A stretch of 64,000 nt of DNA from a virus (lineage: Duplodnaviria; Caudoviricetes). The position numbers and the translations under genes are program-made. Shown piece after piece: positions 3,784-50,151 of this stretch (the stretch's first letter is position 1; each line of letters begins with the position of its first letter). The notes under the pieces were generated by a model, which was not told where the DNA came from, ran no database searches, and was given only the letters and a program-made list of their open reading frames with translations. The stretch covers positions 1 to 64,000 of IMG/VR virus record IMGVR_UViG_3300014204_000146; one strand, written 5' to 3'.

Positions 3784-3862
3784 TGGGCTGTAGCTTAGTT
3801 TGGTTAGAGCAAGCGCCCTGTATAGGAGCGCAAGGTCGGTGGTTCGAATCCATCCAGCCCTA
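3784..3862 (+). tRNA. Atypical tRNA (class I body, 11-nt anticodon loop; possibly Tyr-GUA in an alternative register or a pseudo-tRNA); no encoded CCA
   Basis: Acceptor (T)GGGCTG/CAGCCC(T), D-arm GCTT..GAGC with GG, variable AGGTC, T-arm GGTGG-TTCGAAT-CCATC. Confidence 0.8.
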
Positions 3863-4508: not shown

Positions 4509-5522
4509 ATGACTGAAAAAATCTATGCAGCGGTAAATTCTATAATTCCTCAGCCTCTTTATTTGGTAGGAGGTTCAGTCCGAGATATGCTTTTGAACAA
4601 AGCACCAAAGGATTATGACTTTGCTACTCCTTTGTCTCCTGATGAAGTTGAAGCATTGATTTTAAAAGCCGGGAGACATGTTTATACTACAGGAAAAAGA
4701 TTTGGAACAATTGGATTTAAGGTAGAAGTTGAAGAAAAATTTTATTTTGTAGAAGTAACAACATTCAGAAGTGAAGTATATATGCCAGGAAGTAGAAAAC
4801 CTGAAGTTTCGTTTGAAAAGGATATAATTCTTGATTTAAGCAGAAGAGATTTTACGATTAATGCTATCGCATATCGCGAAGGAAATATAGTTGACCCATT
4901 TGGAGGACAGATAGATTTAAAAAATAAAGTTATTCATTGTGTTGGTAGGGCAAAGACGAGATTTAAAGAAGACCCACTTAGGATGCTCAGAGCTGCGCGG
5001 TTCTCTTCTCAGCTTGGATTTTTAGTAGATGAAGAAATTCATGGATTGATTTATAAGATGGCAGGGTCTATCTTAACAATAAGCAAGGAGCGTTGGGTTG
5101 TGGAATTGGATAAATTGTTGGAAGGATTTGCTGTCCGGGACGGACTTGAATTTGTGATGACTTCCAGATTGTTAAACTTTATGATTCCAGAGTTAAGCCT
5201 TCAGTTCAGATATGACCAGGATAGTCCTTATCACACGCTGGACTTGTGGGAGCATACGAAGAAGGTGGTCGAGGGAGTAGAAGGGCTTGAATTGCGGTGG
5301 GCTGCATTGTTGCACGATATTGGTAAACCTTTTGTCCGAACAAAAAATAAGAGAGGATATCATAATTATATCGAACATGAAAAAGTAAGTGCTGAGATAG
5401 TGGAAAAGATTGCTCATTATTTAAGATGGAGCAATGACAGAAGAAATAGCGTTAGAACTTTAGTGTTGACTCATATGAAAGAAGACAGTCCGTTAAAGCA
5501 AGCGGACGATTTAGCAAAATAA
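4509..5522 (+). CDS. cca: CCA-adding tRNA nucleotidyltransferase with HD domain
   Basis: YLVGGSVRD, KDYDF, RRDFTINA, EDPLRMLRAARF, ERW..EL and LLHDIGK motifs. Confidence 0.93.
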   Translation: MTEKIYAAVNSIIPQPLYLVGGSVRDMLLNKAPKDYDFATPLSPDEVEALILKAGRHVYTTGKRFGTIGFKVEVEEKFYFVEVTTFRSEVYMPGSRKPEVSFEKDIILDLSRRDFTINAIAYREGNIVDPFGGQIDLKNKVIHCVGRAKTRFKEDPLRMLRAARFSSQLGFLVDEEIHGLIYKMAGSILTISKERWVVELDKLLEGFAVRDGLEFVMTSRLLNFMIPELSLQFRYDQDSPYHTLDLWEHTKKVVEGVEGLELRWAALLHDIGKPFVRTKNKRGYHNYIEHEKVSAEIVEKIAHYLRWSNDRRNSVRTLVLTHMKEDSPLKQADDLAK

Positions 5523-6929: not shown

Positions 6930-8237
6930 ATGATATATTCATTATTGGACAATGACTGGTATAAATGGCTTATGGCTCAGGTTGTTTATTTTTTCTTTCC
7001 TGATGTGCGTGTAACTTATAAATTCATCAATCGTGGAGGAGATAAGTTTCCACAGGGCTTTGATTCTTTGGTGTGGGTTGAATGTTGGAAATTATCCAAT
7101 CTAAAATTAACTGCACAAGAAAAGGAATGGCTGTTAAAACAAAAAGGAATGTATTCAGAATTTATAGAATGGTTTTCTAAATATCAATTTGACCCTAATG
7201 AGTTGACGATAGATTTAAGGGATGGAGATTTAACTATTGAAATTGCGGGAAGCTGGTTACGAACAATTTTTTGGGAAGTACCGCTGATGGCTATAATAAG
7301 CGAATTATATTTTAAGAATTATAAATTATCTACAAATTTATTAATGCAAACAGTAAAAGCAAAAAAAGAGTCTCTATGTTTTCCTTTTGTAGATTTTGGA
7401 ACTCGACGTAGATTGCGATTTGATACTCAAGAATATTTAGTATATAAACTTTCTCATACTCAATATTTTTTAGGAACGAGTAATCCTCTTTTGGCTATGA
7501 ATTATGATGTTCCTGTTATTGGAACATATGCTCACGAAGCAGTTATGGCTATGGAGCGATTATCTGTTTTTGATAGAGAACTTGATATATTATTTTGTAA
7601 TAGAGTGTGGTTAGAAAATTGGAGATTTGTTTATGGAAATAATTATGATATTATGCTAACTGATACCATAACGACGGATATTTTTATAAGGAAAGTAGAT
7701 ACTATCTATTGGAAAACTATGTCTGGAGTGCGATTAGATAGTGGAGACCCTTTTATTATTGGAGAAAAGATTCTTGCTCATTATAACAGTTTAGGAATAG
7801 ATACCAAAACAAAGACGTTGGTGTTTAGTGATAATCTCAATCCAGAAAAAGCGAGAAAAATATATGAACATTTTAAAGACCGTTGCAAAGTAATATTTGG
7901 AATAGGAACGAATTTAACAAATGATTATGGAGTAAAGCCGTTGAATATGGTGATTAAACTTGCTACCGTAGAAGGGCAAGGAGTGGTTAAACTTTCAGAT
8001 GAGCCTGGAAAATGGACTGGAAAATTTAAAGATATTGAAAAAGCAATAAAAATAATTGGAGGATTAAAAATGTTAGGACAATATCAATCACAAGAAAAGT
8101 GGAAATGGCATGACCATCTTAGATTCTGGTGGGATATGAATAAGAATGAGATTATACTCGGATTATTTTTCTTAGCAATGGCATTTTCTTTAATAGGATT
8201 TGGAATGAGTATTCAGATAATGGCAGGAGGAAGATAA
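6930..8237 (+). CDS. pncB: Nicotinate phosphoribosyltransferase (with C-terminal TM extension)
   Basis: SLLDNDWYK, DFGTRRR, GTSN, GTYAHE, RLDSGDP, VFSDNL, FGIGT, PLNMVIK and KLSDEPGK match enterobacterial-type PncB. Confidence 0.92.
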   Translation: MIYSLLDNDWYKWLMAQVVYFFFPDVRVTYKFINRGGDKFPQGFDSLVWVECWKLSNLKLTAQEKEWLLKQKGMYSEFIEWFSKYQFDPNELTIDLRDGDLTIEIAGSWLRTIFWEVPLMAIISELYFKNYKLSTNLLMQTVKAKKESLCFPFVDFGTRRRLRFDTQEYLVYKLSHTQYFLGTSNPLLAMNYDVPVIGTYAHEAVMAMERLSVFDRELDILFCNRVWLENWRFVYGNNYDIMLTDTITTDIFIRKVDTIYWKTMSGVRLDSGDPFIIGEKILAHYNSLGIDTKTKTLVFSDNLNPEKARKIYEHFKDRCKVIFGIGTNLTNDYGVKPLNMVIKLATVEGQGVVKLSDEPGKWTGKFKDIEKAIKIIGGLKMLGQYQSQEKWKWHDHLRFWWDMNKNEIILGLFFLAMAFSLIGFGMSIQIMAGGR

Positions 8238-10968: not shown

Positions 10969-12057
10969 ATGATGATGCAGTTTAATAAGACCGAAGAAAA
11001 AATTTTAAAATCCTTTAAAGAAATAACCCACGAAGACGTAGAACGCCTGGCTGGTCAATTGGGGCGGTCTATAGATTCAGTAGAAAAGAAATTCCGTAGG
11101 TTGGGCGTTCCTTATATTAATACAAGGAATCCCGGCTCCTCAAAGTCAAAAGTAGACTTAGCTCCTATTATCATTTCAACTTTAAAATCGGAATTATCAA
11201 GTATAGCTCCTTATATTGCTACACCTATAAAAATAAAAATAGAAGGAGATACGTTGGTAATTCAACTCACAGATTTACATGCTGGAAAAAATGTTAAAGA
11301 CCAGTATGGAAAAACTATTTATGATGAATACATTTTTCGTTCAAGATTTGATATTTTAGCCGGACAGATATTAAAACTACTTGACAATAATATCAGCAAA
11401 GGTGTGAAGATTACAAATGTGGTGATTCTTTCTACCGGAGACAACGCCAACGGAGAAAATATCTATGCAACACAAGCCTACGAACAAGAACTCGCCCCTC
11501 CCAAACAGGTGATGTTAGTTGTTGAAGTTGTTTCCAAGCTCATCAAAGCACTTTTAGCCAGAAATTTACGTGTAGATTTTTATGGAGTAAAAGGAAATCA
11601 CGGTCGTACAGGTAAAGATACCGACCCCACCGCGAATTGGGACTTGATGATTTATTTGATTCTTGATTTCTGGGCGAGATTGGTGCTTAAAAATCCCAAT
11701 TTAAAAATTACATATGCGGAAACAGATTACCTCACGCTAAACATTCGCGGTCATAATTATATGATTCGCCATATTGCTCCTGAGCAGCCAGATACGCCTT
11801 CAGGACGGGTTAAAATAAACGAATGGGCGAGGATGTACAATGCTAAAGGAATTGTTTATGGACATTGGCATCATTTCGGAATATTTGATGTTGACGGCAT
11901 CCGTGTGTTCCGAGGCGGGTCTATTGTAGGAGGAGATTCTCTTTCTGAATCAATGGCGAAGCACAGCGAACCGATTCAGCTGGTCTGGGGTGTGAATGAA
12001 GACCGTGTACACACATTTGCCTATGCGGTAGATTTAAATCAAAAATCAAAAGATTAA
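10969..12057 (+). CDS. Calcineurin-like metallophosphoesterase with N-terminal HTH-like segment
   Basis: TDLHAG, TGDNANG, GNHG and GHWH motifs. Confidence 0.85.
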   Translation: MMMQFNKTEEKILKSFKEITHEDVERLAGQLGRSIDSVEKKFRRLGVPYINTRNPGSSKSKVDLAPIIISTLKSELSSIAPYIATPIKIKIEGDTLVIQLTDLHAGKNVKDQYGKTIYDEYIFRSRFDILAGQILKLLDNNISKGVKITNVVILSTGDNANGENIYATQAYEQELAPPKQVMLVVEVVSKLIKALLARNLRVDFYGVKGNHGRTGKDTDPTANWDLMIYLILDFWARLVLKNPNLKITYAETDYLTLNIRGHNYMIRHIAPEQPDTPSGRVKINEWARMYNAKGIVYGHWHHFGIFDVDGIRVFRGGSIVGGDSLSESMAKHSEPIQLVWGVNEDRVHTFAYAVDLNQKSKD

Positions 12058-19709: not shown

Positions 19710-20299
19710 TGAATAAGAATGTCCTAATAAAAGAGCTTGGATATATTCAAGACATAAAAATACACGAATGGACAGCCAAGACCTTGCAGAACGCTCCTGA
19801 TTATTTCTTTACTGCATCTGCATCCAGTACAGGAAAATATCATCCTCCCTGTACACTTGGAGAAGGTGGCTTAATCGTTCACGTCCAACGAGCCGTATTC
19901 TTTGCTAATCGTTTATGCTCAGGACAGGGTGTGGTGGGAAGGAATAGAGATATTGTATTATCTGCTACAATTCTCCATGATATTGCAAAGACTGGACAGG
20001 GTTCTGGGGCTTATTCTGATTATGTTAATCATCCGATAAATGCAATAAAATATTTATATGGAGTTATTGTCGATGGAACAACGTTAAAAACAACGAACGC
20101 GGGTTTGGATTTAGGCAGTATAGTAGAAATTTATGACTGTATTCGCTTCCACATGACACTCTGGAGCCCGGAAAATATTAAGAAGCCGATTGAGCATTAT
20201 ACACAGCTGGAATTGATTGTAGGAACTGCGGATTATCTTGCAGCCACCAAAGAAGTAATTACACCAGAAGACGGAAAGAGGACTGAAAGTGGCAAATAA
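19709..20299 (+). CDS. HD-domain phosphohydrolase
   Basis: ASSTGKYHP, GGLIVH, LHDIAK, H, HM and ADY motifs. Confidence 0.88.
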   Translation: MNKNVLIKELGYIQDIKIHEWTAKTLQNAPDYFFTASASSTGKYHPPCTLGEGGLIVHVQRAVFFANRLCSGQGVVGRNRDIVLSATILHDIAKTGQGSGAYSDYVNHPINAIKYLYGVIVDGTTLKTTNAGLDLGSIVEIYDCIRFHMTLWSPENIKKPIEHYTQLELIVGTADYLAATKEVITPEDGKRTESGK

Positions 20300-21560
20300 A
20301 GTAGTGGTGATAGATTTAGGATTTCTTTGTTTTATGGCAATTCTAACTTTCCGCAAGACCTATACTATTCCTGCGGGTTATAATTATTTGAGCATGATTA
20401 TAGCTCGCTTGGGAATTATTGGTATTGATTTTGATGATTTAATTATTTTAGCAAAGGATTCAAGGGAAGGAAGTTGGCGCAAAAATATCGTGTCGGAATA
20501 TAAAGCTCAAAGAAAAGAAGCCCGTGAAAAACAAGAAGATAAAGATTGGTGGGATGAAATGTTTCGCGAAATAAACATTGTCAGTGATAAAATCAACGCA
20601 TATACATGCTGGCATGTGGTAGAACTTCCGAGAATGGAATGTGATGACATTGCATCTGTAGCCTGTAGAACGTTTCCTAACAAAGAGGTCATTCTTTGTT
20701 TGGGAGGAAGTACACATATAAAAATGTCGTCAGGTCGTAGTAAATTTATACAACACATTAAACCTGGAGATGAGATTTTAAGTTATGATAAAAAACTTAA
20801 TAAATTTAAAAATGTTTTAGTAAAAAAAACCTGGAAAATAAAAAAAACAGAAGTTGTCGATATTTATTTTAAAAACAATACGCAAAAATCTATAAGATGT
20901 GGAGTTGAACATAAGTTTTATACTAAAAATGGCTGGAAAGAAGCAAAACAATTGAGTGCTGGTGATGAAATTTTTTATAATGGCTCTACATATTCTCTTC
21001 ATATTGACAAAATGGAAAACACTTTAAAATTTTTTAGTATTGTTAAACCAGCGATATTAAGGAAATATCCAAAATGGAATTATTTTGCTAATTATCTCTG
21101 CAATGGTAAAAAAATAAGTAAAATAATTATAAAAAAATCAAAAACGCGTCCTTTTATTTTATATGATATAGAAGTTGAATCTCCCCATACTTATTTTGCT
21201 GATGGCTTGTTGACTCATAACTGTACCAGCGATTCTGATTGGAAGATGTTGCTCTCGTACCCAAATGTCCGGCTACTCTCTACCAAAACAAAAAAGTGGG
21301 TAGAGGTTCCTAATCCAGAAAAAATTCTCAAAGATAAGATTTTTAAAGGAGATGTAGCCGATAATCTCAAAGGTAGACCGAAAACCGAATTAGACTTAGA
21401 GAATCGTCGTACTGTCGTTAATTTGCTCGAATTGCCCGATTATATCGAGCAGCCGATAAAAGAAGTATTGTGGACACTTCCACAAAAAAATATGGTCTGG
21501 GATAGAATACCTTTTAAATCGTTAAGACCTCGCATACGAAAATTATATGGAGGAACGTAA
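20289..21560 (+). CDS. 5'-3' exonuclease/flap endonuclease (T4 RNase H-like), intein-containing
   Basis: VIDL, D...SWRK...YK..R, ECDD, SDSD and GDVADN motifs. Confidence 0.88.
   Translation: MANKVVVIDLGFLCFMAILTFRKTYTIPAGYNYLSMIIARLGIIGIDFDDLIILAKDSREGSWRKNIVSEYKAQRKEAREKQEDKDWWDEMFREINIVSDKINAYTCWHVVELPRMECDDIASVACRTFPNKEVILCLGGSTHIKMSSGRSKFIQHIKPGDEILSYDKKLNKFKNVLVKKTWKIKKTEVVDIYFKNNTQKSIRCGVEHKFYTKNGWKEAKQLSAGDEIFYNGSTYSLHIDKMENTLKFFSIVKPAILRKYPKWNYFANYLCNGKKISKIIIKKSKTRPFILYDIEVESPHTYFADGLLTHNCTSDSDWKMLLSYPNVRLLSTKTKKWVEVPNPEKILKDKIFKGDVADNLKGRPKTELDLENRRTVVNLLELPDYIEQPIKEVLWTLPQKNMVWDRIPFKSLRPRIRKLYGGT
20697..21221 (+). mobile_element. Mini-intein (175 aa) in the exonuclease
   Basis: Starts CLGGST, block B EHKFY, ends YDIEV...YFADGLLTHN followed by Cys; no LAGLIDADG. 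Confidence 0.92.
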
Positions 21561-32800: not shown

Positions 32801-33186
32801 TTAAATATGCTCAAGAACTGGCTCCGCTATTTAAGAAATATTCAGGAGATGTATTTTTCTGGTTGTATGTAAAACCATTTGGAACTGAAACTCGAATGGC
32901 TATGAGAACTCATAAGGGTGTTCGCGCTCAGGAAGAGATTAAAAAAGAAAAGGATGTTATAGCTTTTGATTTAGATAATAAACAACACGTACCAGAAATA
33001 GATTGGGATAAGATGATTGAACGTAATATCCTCAATAAAGTAGAAAATATATTTGAAGCTTTACAGTGGGATATGACCAGTTTATTGCCTCAAACAATTT
33101 CTAAAAAAGAACTTAACAAAGCAATAAAAGAAATAACTCAGGAAGATATATTAGAAGAATTAAAAAGACGGGGAGTTGTAAAATGA
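29851..33186 (+). CDS. polB: Family B DNA polymerase, intein-containing
   Basis: Exo FLDTE, WNRDFDY and NINDV; Pol DLASAYP, KGLVNSLFG and YTDTDS. Confidence 0.95.
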   Translation: MKLLNISNENRLITLFCREDNGKQVIYPIDSYFPYFYNYDERGQLIAYDGKRVKRINCKNPSDIYKMKKDDSPESDVIYFKRFLIDRVPVIEKTTIKYFFLDTEMLTKELPDPRFPIQPVSCMSIYNSLYEKVQTWYILDYPGTLEQQERQLFQDAIKYIKSEAPDLILIWNRDFDYDYLYNRYDKLFNPDVDTSNKYHMTRNDFATAISPIMRNRSGHREAETMYPAGISIVDYLEWYRKVYKTLMSYALDDVAQEELGEVSWGKTDFSVLSPDIKAKNINDVLRMAKIEKKRQLIPYYDETRRMSKSVWEDLHWNCLDEQTEILTKNGWRNRLTISKTDEVLSFNLFSKEYEYTPIIAKMESFYKGNMINYEQGRVNFCVTPNHKFPMIFTRNEGKYTGTEEICFEYANSIPTQRRRFILGSMGYKGGKNNYFKDEEIKLCAWIITEGHFLPGSTREFGGGIYIYQSIKNEEKQNEIEKILKSLDIPYKKKIDRFFIPSAYATKYRILLNNKKQIPELFFELPNHQMKLFLSEAIKGDGHKDEFSPSAYICTSDKILVEQYQRLSVLAGYNAYIRQEDATECMHKKLLKPTITYYACIYIGDNYTIEHSPKWRKELFYNGIVWCIQTSFQNFIIRRAGKVMVSGNSKIIDQLILSEAKLQNIVLPKKKYGMDIPEGDAETFEGAYRRAEPGRYKSTEELKLWKVDLASAYPQAIIDFCLDTSNIANETNACGLGIAINGNIFLQNPNALLPSVARKLLIRKADLKKQLSLVDPESKEGKDLQTKYDAAKGLVNSLFGVTGLKIFRLFDIRVAGAIPFLIRDVLHYVEDNNGLKVVYTDTDSLFILSKENPTDKLNLLVQQWVKEKYGKDSTNIEFECEGYFEKILIITMCRYKGWLRKMNGKLKVEIKGIESKRKDSSTYMKKFQTTLIDKVVNEEPYNSTLAWIKQEMEAIKKQPIENIAFPCKIAAGKEYVNEPIFVRALKYAQELAPLFKKYSGDVFFWLYVKPFGTETRMAMRTHKGVRAQEEIKKEKDVIAFDLDNKQHVPEIDWDKMIERNILNKVENIFEALQWDMTSLLPQTISKKELNKAIKEITQEDILEELKRRGVVK
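30802..31791 (+). mobile_element. Intein (330 aa) with LAGLIDADG homing endonuclease in PolB
   Basis: Starts CLDEQTEILTKNGW, block B VTPNH, LCAWIITEG and AIKGDG motifs; ends VWC...VSGN followed by Ser. Confidence 0.92.
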
Positions 33187-34016
33187 ATATAGATTTATCT
33201 AAATTATCGACAGAAGAATTATTAAAATTAGCATCTTTAAAAGAAGATAAATTCGCGGAGGAAGTGTCGAAACAGACACGCCCTGTTTCCAACGGGGAGA
33301 GTGAGGCGCAAGTCCTCAACTCCGCTCCAATTTTAATTCCAAAAATAAATAATTATTCTAATGATTTTGATTTATCTAAATTAATAATAAAAGAAATACC
33401 ATATTCCGAGGCAAAGCAATATATTAGTAAAAATCATTATAGCGGTTGTTTAGGAAGTTCTATAAGGACTTCTATTGGATTTTTCAATAATAATTTATTA
33501 GTTACAGCAGTAATTTATGGTTATCCAGTTGGGAGACGAGCAAGTAATTATTTATCACCAAATAAAATAGAAAATGCAGAATTGGTTAGATTGTTTAGTC
33601 AAGACGGACTACCTAAAAATACAGAAAGTTATTGTATTAGTAAATCATTTAAATTTTTAAAAGAAAACTATTCTGAAATAAAATATTTAATATCTTATGC
33701 TGATGGTGCTCATGGACATGTGGGATATATTTATCAGGCAACAAATTGGAAATATATAGGGTCGTCGAATCCGGGGAATGGAACATTTATTTTAGATGGA
33801 AAAAATATTCATCCACGAACGCTTTATGCAAAACATGGGACCAGTGATAGAAATAAAATAAAAACCATATACGGAGAAAGAGTAATCATAAAACATACCG
33901 AAGCAAAATATATTTATATAATGTGTTTAGGAAATAAAAAAGAATGTAGAGAGTGGTATTCTAAATTTAAGCAATTACCATATCCTAAAGCACTTAATGA
34001 TACAATTGTAAAATAA
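33183..34016 (+). CDS. mom: Mom-like DNA adenine modification enzyme (GNAT fold)
   Basis: HYS, G.F....L...VIYG.P, ELVRL, KNTESY.IS, LISYAD..HGHVGYIYQATNW.Y.G motifs. Confidence 0.85.
   Translation: MNIDLSKLSTEELLKLASLKEDKFAEEVSKQTRPVSNGESEAQVLNSAPILIPKINNYSNDFDLSKLIIKEIPYSEAKQYISKNHYSGCLGSSIRTSIGFFNNNLLVTAVIYGYPVGRRASNYLSPNKIENAELVRLFSQDGLPKNTESYCISKSFKFLKENYSEIKYLISYADGAHGHVGYIYQATNWKYIGSSNPGNGTFILDGKNIHPRTLYAKHGTSDRNKIKTIYGERVIIKHTEAKYIYIMCLGNKKECREWYSKFKQLPYPKALNDTIVK
33255..33329 (+). tRNA. tRNA-Gly(UCC) with non-canonical D- and T-loops, embedded in the mom-like ORF
   Basis: GCGGAGG/ACTCCGC acceptor, U73, encoded CCA; CCCTG-TT-TCC-AA-CGGGG anticodon arm; TGAGG-CGCAAGT-CCTCA T-arm; GTGTC/GACAC D-stem. 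Confidence 0.88.
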
Positions 34017-34795: not shown

Positions 34796-35296
34796 ATGAA
34801 GATAATTGTCGTAGTGGGAAATATTGGTTCGGGAAAGAGTACCTATATTCGTAAATTACATACAGCATTTAAGAACGATACTCCTCCTTATATTGTTATT
34901 GCGCGAGATACGATTCGTTATATGATGGGTGGGGGAAATTATGTTTTTAATCCAACTTTAGAAGAAGTTGTATGGCAGTCTGAGATGTATATGATTAGGA
35001 GATTTTTACAAAAAGGATGCAACATTATCGTTGACGAAGTTGGTATTAGCCGGGATATGAGAAAAAAATATATTCAATTGGCAAAAGAATTTAATTATGA
35101 TATTGAAGCTCATGTTTTTCCTCGTTTAACGATGCAAGAAAGTGTTGACCGCAGAATGAACAATCCACATGAATGTCCAGACAGGGAGCTGTGGGAAGGA
35201 GTTTGGAAGAAGTTCGATAATCGATATCAAGAACCTACAGTAGAGGAAGGATTTGCTTTTATTAGATACATGACCAGAGAAGAGATAGGAGTATAA
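34796..35296 (+). CDS. AAA_33 / polynucleotide kinase-like P-loop kinase
   Basis: GNIGSGKST, RDTIR, IVDE, R and EP..EEGF motifs. Confidence 0.85.
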   Translation: MKIIVVVGNIGSGKSTYIRKLHTAFKNDTPPYIVIARDTIRYMMGGGNYVFNPTLEEVVWQSEMYMIRRFLQKGCNIIVDEVGISRDMRKKYIQLAKEFNYDIEAHVFPRLTMQESVDRRMNNPHECPDRELWEGVWKKFDNRYQEPTVEEGFAFIRYMTREEIGV

Positions 35297-36057: not shown

Positions 36058-36345
36058 GTGAGAGTTGTTTACTGCGACCTTTGTGGTACGCCTATTCGTG
36101 GAAAAAAATACGTCCAGATTCTTTGTGAGTGTAACGAGAATCCACAAGATTCTGAAGTAAAGAACAGTCTTGTACAGAACAGTGAAGCAAAAGAAATCTG
36201 TGAAAAATGCAGAGAAATTCTTTTGAAGATATTTGAGCTGCGGTTTGTAGATGGTTGTAAATTGACAGAAGAATTACAAAGACTTTATAATTTACCAGCT
36301 AAAAGAGAAGAACACAAAGCACATACAAAAGGAAAGAAAAAATGA
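36058..36345 (+). CDS. Zn-finger protein
   Basis: YCDLCG...EICEKC; SD AAGGAG. Confidence 0.65.
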   Translation: MRVVYCDLCGTPIRGKKYVQILCECNENPQDSEVKNSLVQNSEAKEICEKCREILLKIFELRFVDGCKLTEELQRLYNLPAKREEHKAHTKGKKK

Positions 36346-37325
36346 AAATAATGATAGCCTCAGATTTCCATATAGAAGAAAGTTCCTTCGGAGAAATAGA
36401 TTTTATTTTTGAAGAACTTATTGCGTTAAAAGAAAAAGAGAATATTGATGAACTTTATTTACTGGGAGATATATTCGATAAAATTTATCCGAGCCCTTTG
36501 GAAATGGATTGTTTTGCTTCTTTCATCAAAAAAATAGATTTACCTACAACCATTGTCATTGCTAAAAGTCATGAATCAGAATCTGCGGTCAGTTCTGTAT
36601 TAAACCATTTTGGTATTTTAAAAGACAATATAAAAACATATTTCGAATGGATAGAAGTAGAGCCACAGACAAATTATAAAATGGGATTGGGACATTTTTG
36701 TATTAAAGAATCCTTATGCGGATTTAATGAAACGCGCAGCATTAAAGATTTTGTTGGATTGCGTTTGGTGGTTGCCGGACATCAACATGTTATGCAGGTG
36801 GTTGGAGATTTCTTTTATCATATAGGGTCGGTAAGATATGTTAACTTTGATGAGGTAAGAGACAAATGTAAGTATGTGGGAATACTGACTTTAAGTAGTA
36901 GTATACGTGATTTCTCGTTAAAACCCCTAAAAACACCCTTTCCGATGGTGGACATATACTTTACTGTTTCCACTGAGAAGATGCAACAGTGGGTCTCCAG
37001 CAAAGAATTAGAAGGCAAAAACAAGGATAATGCCGAGTCTTTAGCTGTTTTGACCAAGAAGCTTGATAGAATACCACCTAACTCTAAGGTACGTATAGTG
37101 TTAGGAGATTTTGAAGCCTATAAACAATGGCTCACAGTAACCGAGCATTACCGCGAACGATTCTTTAAGATGAAAGAATTGAAAAAATTCGAAATAAAAC
37201 TTCAGAACATTCAGCCGGAAAAAAAGACTGCGATTCATCTGGAAAAAGACCTTGAGATATTTTTACAGAATCATCCAGCTCAAGAATCGATTAAATCTAT
37301 TTTGAGAGGAGTGGTAAAGAAATGA
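36342..37325 (+). CDS. Mre11/SbcD-like nuclease
   Basis: SDFH, LGDIFD, SHE, GH, AGHQH and GS motifs. Confidence 0.88.
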   Translation: MKIMIASDFHIEESSFGEIDFIFEELIALKEKENIDELYLLGDIFDKIYPSPLEMDCFASFIKKIDLPTTIVIAKSHESESAVSSVLNHFGILKDNIKTYFEWIEVEPQTNYKMGLGHFCIKESLCGFNETRSIKDFVGLRLVVAGHQHVMQVVGDFFYHIGSVRYVNFDEVRDKCKYVGILTLSSSIRDFSLKPLKTPFPMVDIYFTVSTEKMQQWVSSKELEGKNKDNAESLAVLTKKLDRIPPNSKVRIVLGDFEAYKQWLTVTEHYRERFFKMKELKKFEIKLQNIQPEKKTAIHLEKDLEIFLQNHPAQESIKSILRGVVKK

Positions 37326-42418: not shown

Positions 42419-42884
42419 ATCTAAGAAATTCAATATTTTATTTACCAGTGGAGGATTTGATATACTTCATGCCGGGCATATTGCCAATCTCGAAGAAATA
42501 AAATCAAGGTGCAGCAAATTAATTGTAGGTGTATCTTCAGATGAGCTTTTGAAATCTTACAAATATACTCCTCCAATCGTCCCTTTAAAACAGCGCATGA
42601 GAATGATTGCTGCTTTGAGATGCGTCGATACAGTAATGATACAAAAAGAATTTATGGATATTCAGATGTTTATTGAATCAAAGGCAGATAAATTCGCGCT
42701 GTGGACTGGATGGAAAGACAATCCTAAAATACCAGAGTGGTATATAAAGAACGATAAAATGTTATGGATTCCTTACAATTATGGACTATCTTCTACTAAA
42801 ATAAAAGAGCGCATCATTAAACAATCCTATAAAATAATCCGTTCGCAGTTACAGCGAGAACTTAAACAGGAGAACCAAAAATGA
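42411..42884 (+). CDS. HxGH cytidylyltransferase (TagD/RfaE-like)
   Basis: GGFDILHAGH, VGVSSD, R and LSSTKIK. Confidence 0.88.
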   Translation: MIKSKKFNILFTSGGFDILHAGHIANLEEIKSRCSKLIVGVSSDELLKSYKYTPPIVPLKQRMRMIAALRCVDTVMIQKEFMDIQMFIESKADKFALWTGWKDNPKIPEWYIKNDKMLWIPYNYGLSSTKIKERIIKQSYKIIRSQLQRELKQENQK

Positions 42885-45800
42885 CGATAGTAGAGAAATT
42901 TAATTTTATTCAATCTATTTTACGAGAAGCTGGAGTAACATATTGGTTATTCTGTGGTGGATTATTGTTAGCTTATAGAGACCATCGGTTGCCAGAAGAC
43001 GACATTGATTTTGGGTTGTTGATGACAGACTATGAAGCCACCAAAGCCATACTTTTAAAATATAAAGATAGATGGACTTTGTTTAATAGGCGCTCAAGAG
43101 AACTTACTATAAAATTAGAAGGAACTAAATTTGATTTTGTATTTCATGAAATCAATCAAGCAAAAAATCTAATTTATATGTATAGCTATAAACAAAATCC
43201 ATTTTGTAACATGAAATGGAATTATGAATGGAGAGCTATATTTCCTATTGATATATTTCTTCCCGTCAAAACAATGACATTCAATATATTTAATTCTACA
43301 GGACAAAATACAATATCTACTCCGGTGTTAGCGAAACCAGAAGAATACTTCGCTACAAATTATGAATGGAATTGGTATGTTCCTAAAGATGTAGGAAGTG
43401 CTTGTTGGACATATGACCTTAATCCGGCGAAAGATAAAAACTACAATCCTATAGCCGTTATCATGACTACTATAGCCAGGGATGAAATATTGTTAAAGGT
43501 ACTTCCTTCTTATCTCCAGTATCCGGTTAAATTATATTTACTTGACCAAGGAACTCCAACCAAAGAAAAAGATAAATATTATACCGAACTTAGGAGCAAG
43601 GGGCATTTTATAGAATATGCCAACGATATAGGACTTTCGGCTGCAAGAAATTATCTCTTAGACCAAGTGGAAGAAGAATTTATTTTTATGACTGAGGACG
43701 ATATAGAACTAACCACCAATCCTTATAGTTTATTTCAAAAATTTTGGAATAATAATTTAGGAATTCTTGGTGGTTTATTAATTCGTAATGGGAAAGAGCA
43801 GCATTACGAATATGCGCTTGAATTAAAAGATAACATTCTTAATTATGTTATCTCAGACAAAATCGACCTTTGTTTAAATTTCTTCTTAGCAAAAAAGAAA
43901 GTATTCGATGATATTCGATATGACGAAAATTTGAAACTCTGCGAACACACAGACTGGTTCCTTCGTTTAAAAGAACTTAATAAATGGAAGGTTGATTATA
44001 CCAGGAATCTTCAAGGAATTCATCATACTTTCAAACCACAAAACTATATGAACTATCGTGGAAGGGCAGAAGGTTTTGTTGAAGAATTCAAAAAGAAATG
44101 GGGAATTGTCGAAATAAACAAAAATAACGAACTCACCAAACAACAAAACAATTTAACCGTGTTCGTTCTGACTCACGACAACGAACCAAACTACGAACTC
44201 TGTATGGAAGCTTTAAAAAATCAAGGTATAGAATTCAAACTGGATGTTATTAAGAATTTTCATCCAATGAGCGCTGCCTTTCAAGAAATGTTGAATCGCT
44301 GTTCTACTCCTTATTATGTCGAGGTAGACAGTGATATGATTTTGGAACCGGACGCTATAGAAAGATTATACAATGAAATTATCACTTCTGACGAAAGAAC
44401 AGCCATGATTTGTCATAAACTTCACGACGTTCATCTGGATAAATCTATCGATGGAATAAAAATATATAAATACGACATATTCAAAAATTATCCCTATGAG
44501 AATGTCATGAGCTGTGAAATGGCTCAACTTGAAAAACTGGAAAAAGATGGATATAATTATATTAGGAATCCAGAAGTGATAGGAACTCATTGTCCTATTT
44601 GGACAAAAGGAACCATATTCGAGCGATACTTTAATTATATGGAAAAATTGAAAAAATTCAAATCTGATAAATATTCTTTTTTACTTAAAAAATTGTTATC
44701 AACTTTTCTGAACGACCAAACAAAAAATAATCTATATGCGTTCTTAGGAGCTGTTAGTAGTTCCATCATACCAGAACTTAAAAACGAAGAAAAAGATTAT
44801 ACCATTCCTATATTAACCAAGTTCGAATTATTAGATAAAACATTTGATGATTTTGTTTTTGATTCTAAACAAATAAAACCCATTCTTCAAGTAGAACCAA
44901 TACCAACTCCAATAGATAATCGTATCTTAGTTTTACAAATTGCCGGGATTCCATGTGCAAACAGACCTTACGACATTAACCGTTTGATAAATGCTCATTC
45001 AACAAAATATAGGTCTCGACATATATTAGGAGGACAATATTCTAAAAAACATGCAGATATTCCTTATAGAGAATTTCCATTTGATTTATTGTTAACAGAT
45101 GATAAAAAAGAAATTCTAAAACTTATTCAAGAAGCTAAAATCATTCATATTCATCATCGTATTGACAATTCTTTATTGCGAGAGATTCCCAAAAACAAAA
45201 AAATCATTTTTACGGTGTCTAATTTAGGTTCTTCTATTAAATTATATGACACACCAGAAAATGCAAACTATAACGAACATATTAAATCAATCACTAACAT
45301 TTTAACAGTAACTGACCAGCCCATGCAAAAATTAGCATATAACTATCTCACCACAAAAACACTACCTTTGGTCAAATTCCTTTTTGGTCAAGCATCAATG
45401 AAGAACAATCCCGAACCTATAATCGTTTTTGCTCCGACCAATAGACGTTTAGATGAAGCTACATCTAAAGGATATTATCGTGTATTGGGCGTTATTTATA
45501 AATTACAATTAGAAGGACTGAAATTCAAATTTGATTTGATTGAGGGAGTCCCTTATGAAGAAAATCTAAAAAGAAAACAAGTTGCTGATATTATTATTGA
45601 TGATGTTATCAATGAGAATTTTCACAATACGTCGATTGAAGGCGCTTGCTTTGGAGCTGCTGTTGTTACCAATTATCATGACGACAAATATCCATTCATA
45701 AAAACTACCTTAAATCAATTAGAAGACACGCTTCATAAACTATTGACCAATCCAGAAGCACTGAAATCCGCCCAACAAGAAATGATTAACTGGTCGAACA

Positions 45801-46261
45801 ATGTCTACACTCCAGAAAATATTCTTGCTCCATTTGAACATATTTATGATGAAGTTTTAAAAGAAACTCATCCAACTATAGAATCAAACATGTCTACAAA
45901 TTTAGTTCTACCTAAACAAGAAACCATTGTCGAACAAACGCATATCATGGAAGAATTGATTCAAACTCTTTCAGATATGAAAATATCTTATTGGGTGCTA
46001 AACGAAACATGCTTAGAAATAGTAAAGACCGGAGCCTTGTCAGAAGGAACAGACCTTCACTTCGGAGTAAGAACGATGGAAGAAAAGAATAAACTGCTCG
46101 CCATTACAGATGCGAAAAACATAAAAACTTCCATTTCAATAGAACCAACACGAAAAACAAAATCATACGGGCTTTATGGAACAACGATTCAAGTACCTGT
46201 TCCTTTAGTGCGATATTTAGAAAATCTATATCTCAAACCATTCAACGAAATAATAAAATGA
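42881..46261 (+). CDS. Multidomain LicD-like phosphotransferase plus glycosyltransferases
   Basis: WL..GGLL.AYRD...DDIDFG (LicD); two GT-A domains (TEDD, VDSD); GT-B-like domain; degenerate terminal NTase. Confidence 0.8.
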   Translation: MTIVEKFNFIQSILREAGVTYWLFCGGLLLAYRDHRLPEDDIDFGLLMTDYEATKAILLKYKDRWTLFNRRSRELTIKLEGTKFDFVFHEINQAKNLIYMYSYKQNPFCNMKWNYEWRAIFPIDIFLPVKTMTFNIFNSTGQNTISTPVLAKPEEYFATNYEWNWYVPKDVGSACWTYDLNPAKDKNYNPIAVIMTTIARDEILLKVLPSYLQYPVKLYLLDQGTPTKEKDKYYTELRSKGHFIEYANDIGLSAARNYLLDQVEEEFIFMTEDDIELTTNPYSLFQKFWNNNLGILGGLLIRNGKEQHYEYALELKDNILNYVISDKIDLCLNFFLAKKKVFDDIRYDENLKLCEHTDWFLRLKELNKWKVDYTRNLQGIHHTFKPQNYMNYRGRAEGFVEEFKKKWGIVEINKNNELTKQQNNLTVFVLTHDNEPNYELCMEALKNQGIEFKLDVIKNFHPMSAAFQEMLNRCSTPYYVEVDSDMILEPDAIERLYNEIITSDERTAMICHKLHDVHLDKSIDGIKIYKYDIFKNYPYENVMSCEMAQLEKLEKDGYNYIRNPEVIGTHCPIWTKGTIFERYFNYMEKLKKFKSDKYSFLLKKLLSTFLNDQTKNNLYAFLGAVSSSIIPELKNEEKDYTIPILTKFELLDKTFDDFVFDSKQIKPILQVEPIPTPIDNRILVLQIAGIPCANRPYDINRLINAHSTKYRSRHILGGQYSKKHADIPYREFPFDLLLTDDKKEILKLIQEAKIIHIHHRIDNSLLREIPKNKKIIFTVSNLGSSIKLYDTPENANYNEHIKSITNILTVTDQPMQKLAYNYLTTKTLPLVKFLFGQASMKNNPEPIIVFAPTNRRLDEATSKGYYRVLGVIYKLQLEGLKFKFDLIEGVPYEENLKRKQVADIIIDDVINENFHNTSIEGACFGAAVVTNYHDDKYPFIKTTLNQLEDTLHKLLTNPEALKSAQQEMINWSNNVYTPENILAPFEHIYDEVLKETHPTIESNMSTNLVLPKQETIVEQTHIMEELIQTLSDMKISYWVLNETCLEIVKTGALSEGTDLHFGVRTMEEKNKLLAITDAKNIKTSISIEPTRKTKSYGLYGTTIQVPVPLVRYLENLYLKPFNEIIK

Positions 46262-48736: not shown

Positions 48737-48970
48737 ATGAGTTGTTTAGCCGAACCGGAAGGATGGTATGAAAAAACACTATGGGAAAAATTACTCGACA
48801 TTGTAGCACATAGTATTTTATGGCTTGCAATTGTATGTATCGTAACTGCCTTGTTATTTGTCGGTATTATGTTTTTCATTGCAGACCCCATAGCTGGCGC
48901 TGCTATAGGATGTGGATTGATTATTATCATAAGTATTGGATGGGCGTGGAGACGTGTAGGAGACTTTTAA
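48737..48970 (+). CDS. Small 2-TM membrane protein
   Basis: SD AAGGAGG; two hydrophobic helices. Confidence 0.6.
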   Translation: MSCLAEPEGWYEKTLWEKLLDIVAHSILWLAIVCIVTALLFVGIMFFIADPIAGAAIGCGLIIIISIGWAWRRVGDF

Positions 48971-50151
48971 TGGCAAAATTAATAATTGAAATCTGTAAGA
49001 TAGAAGAAATCAAGCCAATCGACAAAGCAGATAAAATCGAACTCGCCATAATCAAAGGATGGCAATGTATCGTTTCTAAAGGACAGTATGAAGCTGGAAA
49101 TCTTGTTATCTATTGTCCTCCAGACTCCATCATTCCTCCTAATTTGATTGAAAAATATAAACTCGAATTTCTTAGAGACGACGGTCGAGTAAAAACTATT
49201 AAACTGCGCGGAGAGCGTAGCGAAGGATTGATTTTAGATATAGAGTGCTTATCTATTTCTCTTAAACATAAATTAGGAGACGATGTTTCTAAAGAACTTG
49301 GCATTGCGAAATGGGAGCCTCCAGAACGCCAAGGAGAGCCTAAACCAAAAGAAACCTTTCGCAGCATCTATGAGAATTATAAAGAAGGAAAGATGTCATT
49401 GCGCCGATTTTTAAGAAAAGAATTATCCTTGACTATTTCAACCATTCTTCCAAGCAAAAAGAATCGAAAAAATCCCGCTTTCAGAGAGTATACTGACATT
49501 GAAAATATCAAACATTATCCTGAGATTTTTGAAGAAGGAGAATCAATTGTTATCCAAGAAAAAATTCATGGAAGTAACAGCAGGGCTGGATGGCTTCTTA
49601 AATATAAAGATAATTTGTGGGGCAAATTTATGTCTTTATTTTTTGGAGAATGGGAATTTGTCTACGGCAGCCACACAGTTCAAAAACATCCCCTATCCTG
49701 GAATAAAGGATGGTATAAAGAAGACTTTTGGTTAGAGATGGTACATAAATATGATTTAAAAAATAAAATCCCAAAAGGATATGTTGTCTATTTCGAAGTT
49801 TATGGAGATAAAGTCCAAGACCTTACTTATGGACTTAAAAATGAACGCCGTATAGTCATATTTGATGTTATGAAAGACGGAACGTATTTAGACTTTGACA
49901 AGATGATTGAATTTTGTCGATTGTCGGAACTGCCTATTGCTCCTATTCTGAATTATGGAGGAGGATATTCTAAATATATTATTGATGAACATACTTTAGG
50001 TATGTCTTGTTTGTATTTAAAACAAATACGAGAAGGTTGCGTTGTTCGACCACTAAAAGAAACAATACACCAAAAAATAGGAAGAAAGATATTGAAAAGT
50101 ATATCAATAGATTATTTAACAAGAAAAGGGAATACTACGGAGTTTCATTAA
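48970..50151 (+). CDS. RNA ligase, DRB0094/Rnl5-like, with N-terminal OB domain
   Basis: IKPIDKADKIELA..GWQ.IV, KLRG..SEG, QEKIHGS, YFEVYG, FDV, REGCV and KSIS..YL. Confidence 0.9.
   Translation: MAKLIIEICKIEEIKPIDKADKIELAIIKGWQCIVSKGQYEAGNLVIYCPPDSIIPPNLIEKYKLEFLRDDGRVKTIKLRGERSEGLILDIECLSISLKHKLGDDVSKELGIAKWEPPERQGEPKPKETFRSIYENYKEGKMSLRRFLRKELSLTISTILPSKKNRKNPAFREYTDIENIKHYPEIFEEGESIVIQEKIHGSNSRAGWLLKYKDNLWGKFMSLFFGEWEFVYGSHTVQKHPLSWNKGWYKEDFWLEMVHKYDLKNKIPKGYVVYFEVYGDKVQDLTYGLKNERRIVIFDVMKDGTYLDFDKMIEFCRLSELPIAPILNYGGGYSKYIIDEHTLGMSCLYLKQIREGCVVRPLKETIHQKIGRKILKSISIDYLTRKGNTTEFH

Follow-up and report, generated by a model that had tools for sequence, protein, structure and literature searches.

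A deviant tRNA-Gly-like RNA inside a phage mom gene, a candidate glycine carrier for DNA modification

The polB-mom junction and its embedded RNA

The DNA analyzed here, which we call the window, is 64,000 nucleotides long (positions 1 to 64,000 of IMG/VR record IMGVR_UViG_3300014204_000146, a virus of the Caudoviricetes), and our subject is a 75-nt tRNA-like element that lies within a gene of this phage for a homologue of Mom, the DNA-modifying enzyme of phage Mu. The 277-codon open reading frame (ORF) that contains the element directly follows a family B DNA polymerase gene, polB (Table 1), and since the polB stop codon overlaps the mom start as ATGA, the two genes are probably co-transcribed and translationally coupled. 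The junction recurs as TAATG or ATGA in relatives, where PF00136, PF03104 and intein matches mark the genes upstream of mom and PolB carries LAGLIDADG and intein matches. A previous sequence-only reading had called the ORF Mom-like, and the assignment holds: residues 67-269 match positions 2-202 of the 202 in the PF25680 profile (E 1e-42; 146.6 bits, cut-off 27.1), and the ORF is 31% identical to Mu Mom, which belongs to the same family. Two residues, R136 and S149, are invariant in 19 homologues and align to R111 and S124, which are essential in Mu Mom (Silva et al., PMC13219725). Judged from its sequence, the ORF is a true Mom-family homologue in which the residues essential in Mu have been kept.

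The minimum free energy (MFE) structure obtained with RNAfold for the element is the tRNA cloverleaf, at -33 kcal/mol and with a z-score of -3.26 relative to shuffles, and it displays the TCC anticodon, the glycyl-tRNA synthetase (GlyRS) elements and the encoded CCA that had been read from the letters. The acceptor arm consists of six pairs, G1-C72, C2-G71 and G3-C70 among them, plus a G7/A66 mismatch that is invariant in the family; the anticodon loop is UUUCCAA, its TCC being read in frame as a Ser codon; the 5-bp D stem carries a GAAACA loop without GG, and the T loop is CGCAAGU, both as previously described. The whole element forms an island of 57% GC in surroundings of roughly 25-30%. Apart from the acceptor mismatch, it has the four-arm layout of a tRNA, with a 7-bp acceptor, a 7-nt anticodon loop and a 5-bp T stem. 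The conserved tRNA core (U8, A14, G18G19, T54-psi55-C56, A58) is mostly lost: the window element and its closest relatives, hereafter type 1, have A8, C14 and no GG in the D loop, and their T loop, C/U-G-C-A-A-G-U, keeps only positions 54 and 58. The bacterial GlyRS identity set, listed in PMC7826273 as G1-C72, C2-G71, U73, C35 and C36, is complete.

Standard tRNA finders pass the element over. ARAGORN, which had been proposed as a check of the locus, made no tRNA call at 33255-33329 with default thresholds, and with the relaxed setting -ps70 the interval was not among the matches listed; the Rfam tRNA model (RF00005) gave no match to the element at E <= 10. We take these missed calls to reflect the nature of the RNA and do not count them against it. 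A promoter scan around the locus returned fewer promoter-like sites than shuffles did, and a terminator scan returned 5 terminator-like sites against a shuffle mean of 2.6, which lends no support to the RNA having signals of its own.

At the protein level, the element lies on the same strand and in frame within the mom ORF, and no ATG precedes the GNAT domain, as the letters had indicated; in fact no ATG, GTG or TTG occurs in frame between the element and the Mom domain. The linker after the element differs in length among homologues by whole codons, indicating that the frame is really translated through the RNA gene. A search for homologues of the window Mom returned 45 proteins at E <= 1e-10, and in protein alignments the N-terminal peptide FA(G/E)EVSK...NxAP is kept among homologues even at 35% overall identity. 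The leader is conserved as protein in most relatives, shows a coding signature in its nucleotide identity at codon positions 1/2/3 (0.76/0.89/0.73) and is predicted by AlphaFold2 to form a helix at residues 10-19; in L101, L103, L105, L086 and L132 (locus numbers of our homologue set) it is replaced by another leader, or by none. In the same model the predicted local distance difference test score is below 50 over residues 20-56 (predicted disorder) and mostly above 80 in the Mom domain, and the peptide encoded by the element looks like a passenger.

Table 1. The polB-mom locus of the window phage and the arrangement of the element in selected relatives (positions in the window, or in the contig of the relative named)
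Feature	Position	Strand	Basis or remark
Family B DNA polymerase (polB) with inserted intein, 1111 aa	29851..33186	+	ORF list, sequence
Mom-family ORF, 277 aa: leader, tRNA-like segment, linker, Mom GNAT domain	33183..34016	+	Pfam PF25680
Leader, codons 1-24 (MNIDLSKLSTEELLKL...)	33183..33254	+	Translated; short helix predicted
Non-canonical tRNA-Gly(UCC)-like RNA, 75 nt, type 1, codons 25-49	33255..33329	+	Cloverleaf MFE, covariation
Acceptor arm	33255-33260 pairing with 33320-33325	+	Cloverleaf
D arm	33264-33279	+	
Anticodon arm, TCC at 33288-33290	33281-33297	+	
T arm	33302-33318	+	
U73	33326	+	
Encoded CCA	33327-33329	+	
Variable linker, codons 50-66, without in-frame start codon	33330..33380	+	Sequence
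Mom GNAT catalytic domain	33381..33989	+	PF25680 match 2-202 of 202
L003			Two diverged Mom paralogues, leader and RNA identical in each
L086	4904-4978	-	PolB, RNA and Mom in one uninterrupted ORF
L132	2132-2206	+	PolB, RNA and Mom in one uninterrupted ORF
L184	1908-1982	+	polB stop inside D loop; RNA without CCA; Mom begins after RNA
L088	644-718	-	RNA between polB and RuvC-like gene; no Mom domain
L102			Frameshift after RNA

Covariation and selection on the RNA

Homologous DNA, gathered by protein look-ups and with a DNA pattern placing no constraint on the discriminator base, provided 22 distinct versions of the element, all of them exactly 75 nt long and free of indels; the relatives of the window phage are metagenome contigs. 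Across these versions 99.8% of the cloverleaf cells are paired, compared with 37-52% when partners are slid, and 14 of the 21 pairs show changes on both sides, including all five pairs of the anticodon stem, which covary. None of 500 shuffles attained the observed pairing and covariation values. The conservation of the fold with covariation in Mom homologues, put forward earlier as the way to check the element, is thus what we find, and the compensatory changes alter the encoded amino acids (RPVSNGE, CGTSSSE, LLASSEE). Nucleotide identity within the element is flat across the three codon positions (0.78/0.76/0.74), whereas the Mom domain has a normal coding signature (0.58/0.65/0.51); since the three positions are equally conserved in the element, selection acts on the RNA.

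The GlyRS identity set is conserved throughout. G1-C72, C2-G71, U73, C35 and C36 are invariant in 22/22 versions of type 1 and in 21/21 of the sister family described below (type 2). Within type 1 the anticodon U34-C35-C36 (TCC) is kept in 22/22, U33 and CCA in 21/22 each, and A37 is invariant or nearly so; TCC makes up 7% of the Ser codons of the window phage, yet it is kept in every version of the element. T73, the third base of an Ala codon, is likewise kept in all 22, although the search pattern had left that base free. The third acceptor pair, G3-C70 in the window, is A-U in 8/22 relatives. A covarying Watson-Crick pair between positions 32 and 38 closes off the anticodon loop. The T-stem pairs 49-65, 50-64 and 51-63 vary in type 1; the A-U pair at 51-63, which had been singled out in the sequence-only reading, is present in the window element and is not a trait of the family, G-C being commonest there. 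Canonical T loops are retained in some relatives (L126, L105, L052). We conclude that the element is under RNA-level selection with its GlyRS identity set preserved. A pattern scan of GTDB genome contigs gave chance matches only, of the wrong length and without the fold.

Linkage to Mom and a sister family

A covariance model of type 1 (R1), which scores the window element at 97 bits, found related RNAs near distant Mom genes in L001, L037 and L052. In L001 the RNA sits at the 3' end of the Mom ORF, in L037 it lies 1.3 kb downstream, and L052 has a nearly canonical tRNA-Gly 1.9 kb upstream of Mom. The L001 element (2028-2103, +) is of type 2 and occupies the last codons of a distant Mom; its anticodon is ACC (A34), with C35 and C36 kept, and it ends in UCA instead of CCA.

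Type 2 was then sampled from IMG/VR with a pattern built of tRNA features only, among them the unusual GTGCAA T loop. The pattern returned 45 loci, 34 of which have Mom on the same strand; the 11 without Mom comprise five chance matches of deviating length, five loci cut by contig ends and one other. The type 2 RNA measures 76 nt; its D stem has 4 bp, its T stem contains a bulged A that never varies, and it too covaries (96% of cells paired, double changes in 15/21 pairs). It shares with the window element UCC, G1-C72, C2-G71, U73 and CCA, as well as the U-G-C-A-A type of T loop, the loss of G18G19 and the linkage to a same-strand Mom. The window type differs in having no bulge, a 5-bp D stem and a GAAAMA loop, and in its place 5' of the Mom domain at the polB-mom junction. 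That the type 2 covariance model (R2) still scores the window element at 62 bits indicates that the two types are related.

As a control, the same pattern was run with the canonical GTTCRA T loop, which yielded 49 phage tRNA-Gly(UCC) genes called by ARAGORN. Mom was nearby in only 3/49 of these, and all three were embedded in Mom. Deviant tRNA-Gly-like genes are therefore tightly and specifically linked to Mom in many phage lineages. Among the cases found by pattern, 54/60 elements lie 3' of the Mom domain (44/54 inside the same open frame, 10/54 outside it) and 6/60 lie 5' of it, five of the six in frame. Scores against the Rfam tRNA model are graded, from 41.9 bits (L052) through 30.3 and 27.9 to no match, a gradation that suggests descent of these RNAs from a canonical tRNA-Gly.

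Variation of layout among relatives

The element is found embedded in the 5' or the 3' part of mom, overlapping its stop codon, 65 nt or 1.3 kb downstream, or between polB and mom, and this variety of places in, beside or downstream of mom fits an RNA that acts in trans. Type 1 elements, in turn, always occupy the polB-mom junction, where their relation to the reading frame changes from one relative to the next (Table 1). L086 and L132 are open for more than 700 aa upstream of the element, and the ORF would give a polymerase-Mom fusion protein; in L132 a second Mom (P0019), without an RNA, lies just downstream. In L184 the T loop is a near-canonical UUCAAGC, the 3' end is GCUUUA, and Mom is called from a TTG after the RNA. 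The tandem Mom paralogues of L003 (912-1883 and 2004-2900) have strongly diverged catalytic domains. At their starts the leader is the same and the two copies of the 75-nt RNA are identical, a pattern suggestive of gene conversion or of a recent duplication of this 5' module.

What the relatives have in common is thus the RNA and its probable joint transcription with mom, and not the frame in which it is read. This bears on a control that the sequence-only reading had proposed, in which one transcript yields either enzyme or co-substrate because excision of the tRNA cuts the mom message: the logic is sound for the layout in the window, but with the RNA standing outside the Mom frame in relatives such control is not an essential feature, nor is it a conserved necessity, as shown by L184, L088, L086, L132 and the 10/54 3'-side cases.

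Discussion

Mom of phage Mu moves glycine from Gly-tRNAGly to the N6 of adenine (Silva et al. 2026, Nat Commun 17:4787, PMC13219725), as the sequence-only reading had correctly stated; the enzyme depends on the terminal riboadenosine, does not accept Gly-tRNAAla and works with each of the three host isoacceptors (PMC13219725). Because Mu Mom uses Gly-tRNAGly and the RNA described here is specifically linked to Mom, we favor, with a probability of roughly 0.6, the reading that the 75-nt element is a structurally deviant phage tRNA-Gly(UCC) serving as a dedicated, non-ribosomal glycyl carrier for the Mom encoded by the surrounding gene. The element keeps exactly the features required by bacterial GlyRS and appears to have lost those on which the ribosome, and probably EF-Tu, depend; the loss of G18G19 and of T-psi-C, together with the covarying Watson-Crick 32-38 pair, would fit a non-ribosomal role.

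According to this proposal, the RNA would be made as part of the polB-mom transcript, its 5' end would be freed by host RNase P and its 3' end trimmed back to the encoded CCA, a phage CCA-adding enzyme also being at hand, and host GlyRS would charge it with glycine. Mom would then transfer the glycine to the N6 of adenine in phage DNA, and rearrangement of the product would yield carbamoylmethyl-adenine. Without the G18G19/T-psi-C elbow and with the 32-38 pair, the RNA is expected to be a poor ligand of EF-Tu and of the ribosome, and the glycine supply of Mom would thereby be insulated from translation; U73 may also shield the glycyl ester from DTD, to judge from PMC6097841. In the window phage a processed transcript could not make Mom, since the ORF must be translated through the tRNA sequence, and ribosome traffic through that sequence should conversely hinder folding and processing. 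This coupling of enzyme and RNA is probably a consequence of tight packing and not a selected function, a side effect that may matter nonetheless. A bolder version, in which several phage lineages possess an orthogonal pair of Mom DNA-glycyl-transferase and ribosome-excluded tRNA-Gly on one bifunctional transcript, with the competition between translation and RNase P setting the ratio of enzyme to co-substrate and sparing the translational Gly-tRNA pool, strikes us as possible but doubtful.

Several points weigh against the dedicated carrier. The aberrant elbow could impair recognition by RNase P or GlyRS as well, and Mu Mom appears to read mainly the acceptor end, so that a private tRNA is not chemically required. 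GGA accounts for 62% of the Gly codons of the window phage, leaving room for a decoding role. Excision would destroy the mom message in most type 1 members, an odd arrangement if both products were needed together. L126 ends in CCG and L184 lacks CCA; L088 has a stop five codons after the RNA and no Mom domain in its 3.6-kb contig, being either a Mom-less carrier of the RNA or part of a genome with Mom elsewhere. Finally, the close Mom relatives L181-L183 (47-57% identity) have no such RNA within the available DNA, and among the 80 Mom loci closest to the query in similarity only 6 carry one at a distance of up to 2 kb.

Most type 1 elements lie in frame downstream of the start codon and ahead of the catalytic domain, which raises the alternative that the element is a cis-acting tRNA mimic in the mom mRNA, bound by Mom, GlyRS or another tRNA-binding protein and throttling translation of a toxic enzyme, much as the thrS operator imitates tRNAThr. 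Mu mom is indeed toxic and under tight translational control, according to PMC6483171 and PMC3378877, a structure of -33 kcal/mol does lie within codons 25-49, and neither a promoter nor a terminator belonging to the element was found by our scans. Yet related elements past the stop codon, 65 nt to 1.3 kb downstream, or in intergenic DNA cannot gate translation of Mom, L088 retains the element without mom, and the preservation of U73 and CCA at synonymous sites along with the full GlyRS set, anticodon included, points to a free, chargeable 3' end; we regard this alternative as unlikely. A little lower still we place an ordinary, if degenerate, elongator tRNA-Gly(UCC) that aids decoding of the dominant GGA codon and came to lie in mom as a by-product of genome compaction. 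Besides the codon usage just given, the phage has another tRNA and the CCA-adding enzyme, and the canonical T loops of L126, L105 and L052 would suit such a role. An elongator would hardly lack G18G19 and T-psi-C, have A8 for U8 and close its anticodon loop with a covarying Watson-Crick 32-38 pair, nor does it agree with the ACC anticodon of L001; the element finds no Rfam or ARAGORN match while the other tRNA of the phage scores 47.9 bits, and canonical tRNA-Gly(UCC) seldom adjoins Mom (3/49) where the deviant form almost always does.

The constant place of type 1 at the polB-mom junction, and the shared transcript made probable by the ATGA or TAATG overlap, could also speak for tRNA punctuation, in which RNase P cleavage separates the polB and mom messages or sets their stability and the RNA product itself is functionless. 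This is improbable in our view, because mere cleavage by RNase P would not call for an invariant anticodon, U73 or CCA, type 2 elements lie at mom 3' ends in quite different gene contexts, and cleavage would strip the start codon from the Mom coding part. As for there being no functional RNA at all, merely a conserved N-terminal peptide whose GC-rich codons fold by coincidence, the conserved FA(G/E)EVSK...NxAP motif and the negative tRNA finders are what one would expect, but the covariation contradicts it: 14/21 pairs keep their pairing through double changes that alter amino acids, conservation at third codon positions equals that at the other two, the encoded peptide is predicted to be disordered, and the element stands outside the Mom frame in L184 and five codons before a stop in L088. 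We give this explanation next to no credence. An origin as an attP site or tRNA fragment was likewise rejected, as the cloverleaf is full-length and covaries among phages.

Comparison with known systems

The anatomy of a tRNA-Gly-like RNA in mom has been known since 2011, when McMurdie et al. (BMC Genomics 12:287, PMC3146451) reported that the mom homologue of Dehalococcoides ssrA islands contains, in its first 150 bp, a conserved tRNA-Gly-like locus of 76 bp. They proposed no function for it (PMC3146451), the dependence of Mom on tRNA not yet being known. Like the window, this 'pseudo-tRNA' has a complete tRNA-Gly-like cloverleaf in the 5' part of a Mom homologue of about 270 aa, is conserved across elements and was missed or flagged 'pseudo' by annotation pipelines (PMC3146451). 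The window element, 75 nt at nucleotides 73-147 of a 277-aa ORF, is likened to it by description, not by sequence; the Dehalococcoides element belongs to an integrative island, whereas the window comes from a tailed phage of about 90 kb. With its 75 nt, 5-bp D stem, T stem without bulge and in-frame 5' position at the polB-mom junction, the window represents a distinct subfamily. Our literature search found no paper linking mom-embedded tRNA-Gly-like RNAs to the tRNA dependence of Mom.

The best functional analogy would be the staphylococcal non-proteogenic tRNAGly. NP1-3 tRNAGly of S. aureus are UCC isoacceptors that act as donors for FmhB/FemAB (Rietmeyer et al. 2021, PMC7826273); they keep the GlyRS identity set, have altered D and T arms, bind EF-Tu weakly and deliver glycine to a non-ribosomal aminoacyl-transferase (PMC7826273). 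They differ from the window RNA in being free-standing chromosomal genes of one bacterial lineage with a role proven biochemically, whereas the window RNA is viral, lies inside the ORF of the enzyme itself, is more deviant and is known here from sequence alone. Mu Mom, in turn, belongs to the same family PF25680 and has the same essential Arg and Ser as the window Mom, but an R2 search of the Mu locus (L178) found no tRNA-like element at mom, and any host isoacceptor is used. Mu controls mom through Com, C and Dam, not through an embedded RNA.

Mimicry of tRNA that engages aminoacyl-tRNA synthetases is also represented by the tRNA-like structures of plant viruses and by the thrS operator, which mimics tRNAThr. 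These mimics act in cis, at RNA ends or ribosome binding sites, whereas the window element has a standard cloverleaf and an internal coding position, and its relatives occur as separate genes.

Other genes of the phage and its host

The window phage encodes a class II CCA-adding enzyme (4509-5522, +; PolyA_pol head, RNA-binding and HD domains; E 3e-33), and some 650 nt upstream of it lies the other, odd tRNA (3784-3862, +), the one with 47.9 bits in Rfam, called Tyr-GTA by ARAGORN, with a U1/U72 mismatch, no CCA and an anticodon loop of 9 nt against 5 in the Rfam model. An RNA ligase (48820-50151, +; PHA02142 OB fold and RNA_ligase), an AAA_33/Zeta-type kinase only 0.8 kb downstream of mom (34796-35296, +) and two metallophosphoesterases (10969-12057, + and 36342-37325, +) could together form an RNA (tRNA) repair set. 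A 5'-3' exonuclease-like ORF (20289-21560) with Intein_splicing and HINT matches is a second intein-bearing replication gene beside PolB. A tyrosine integrase (405-1220), which makes a temperate phage possible, a nicotinate phosphoribosyltransferase (6930-8237) and an 1126-aa ORF with a family 2 glycosyltransferase (GT2) domain (42881-46261; Pfam E 5.6e-08) are accessory modules unrelated to the RNA finding.

The phage also encodes a bacterial-type RecA, which together with the CCA-adding enzyme fits a bacterial host. A Mom 55% identical to that of the window, with the same embedded RNA, is present (P0006) on a 93.6-kb contig deposited at NCBI as a Candidatus Lokiarchaeia metagenome-assembled genome. 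The archaeal host that this label would imply was set aside as probably a binning artefact, given the bacterial-type RecA, the class II CCA-adding enzyme and U73; the contig is probably a phage contig binned by composition.

Significance

That Mom uses glycine from a charged tRNA was shown only in 2023-2026, and the established Mu Mom assays would allow a direct test of the donor idea. For annotation the element would be a marker overlooked by standard tRNA finders, and if the carrier reading is true, the RNA and Mom would make up a natural orthogonal pair of tRNA and transferase, of use in enzymology and in building tools. Should the more doubtful bifunctional transcript also prove real, the element would provide the first example of a non-proteinogenic tRNA from a virus, and also the first case of a tRNA gene demonstrably read in two ways, as tRNA and as codons. 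A dedicated carrier would account for the 'pseudo-tRNA' in mom genes, unexplained since 2011; it would give viruses an equivalent of the staphylococcal non-proteogenic tRNAs, and would show that DNA hypermodification can be insulated from translation.

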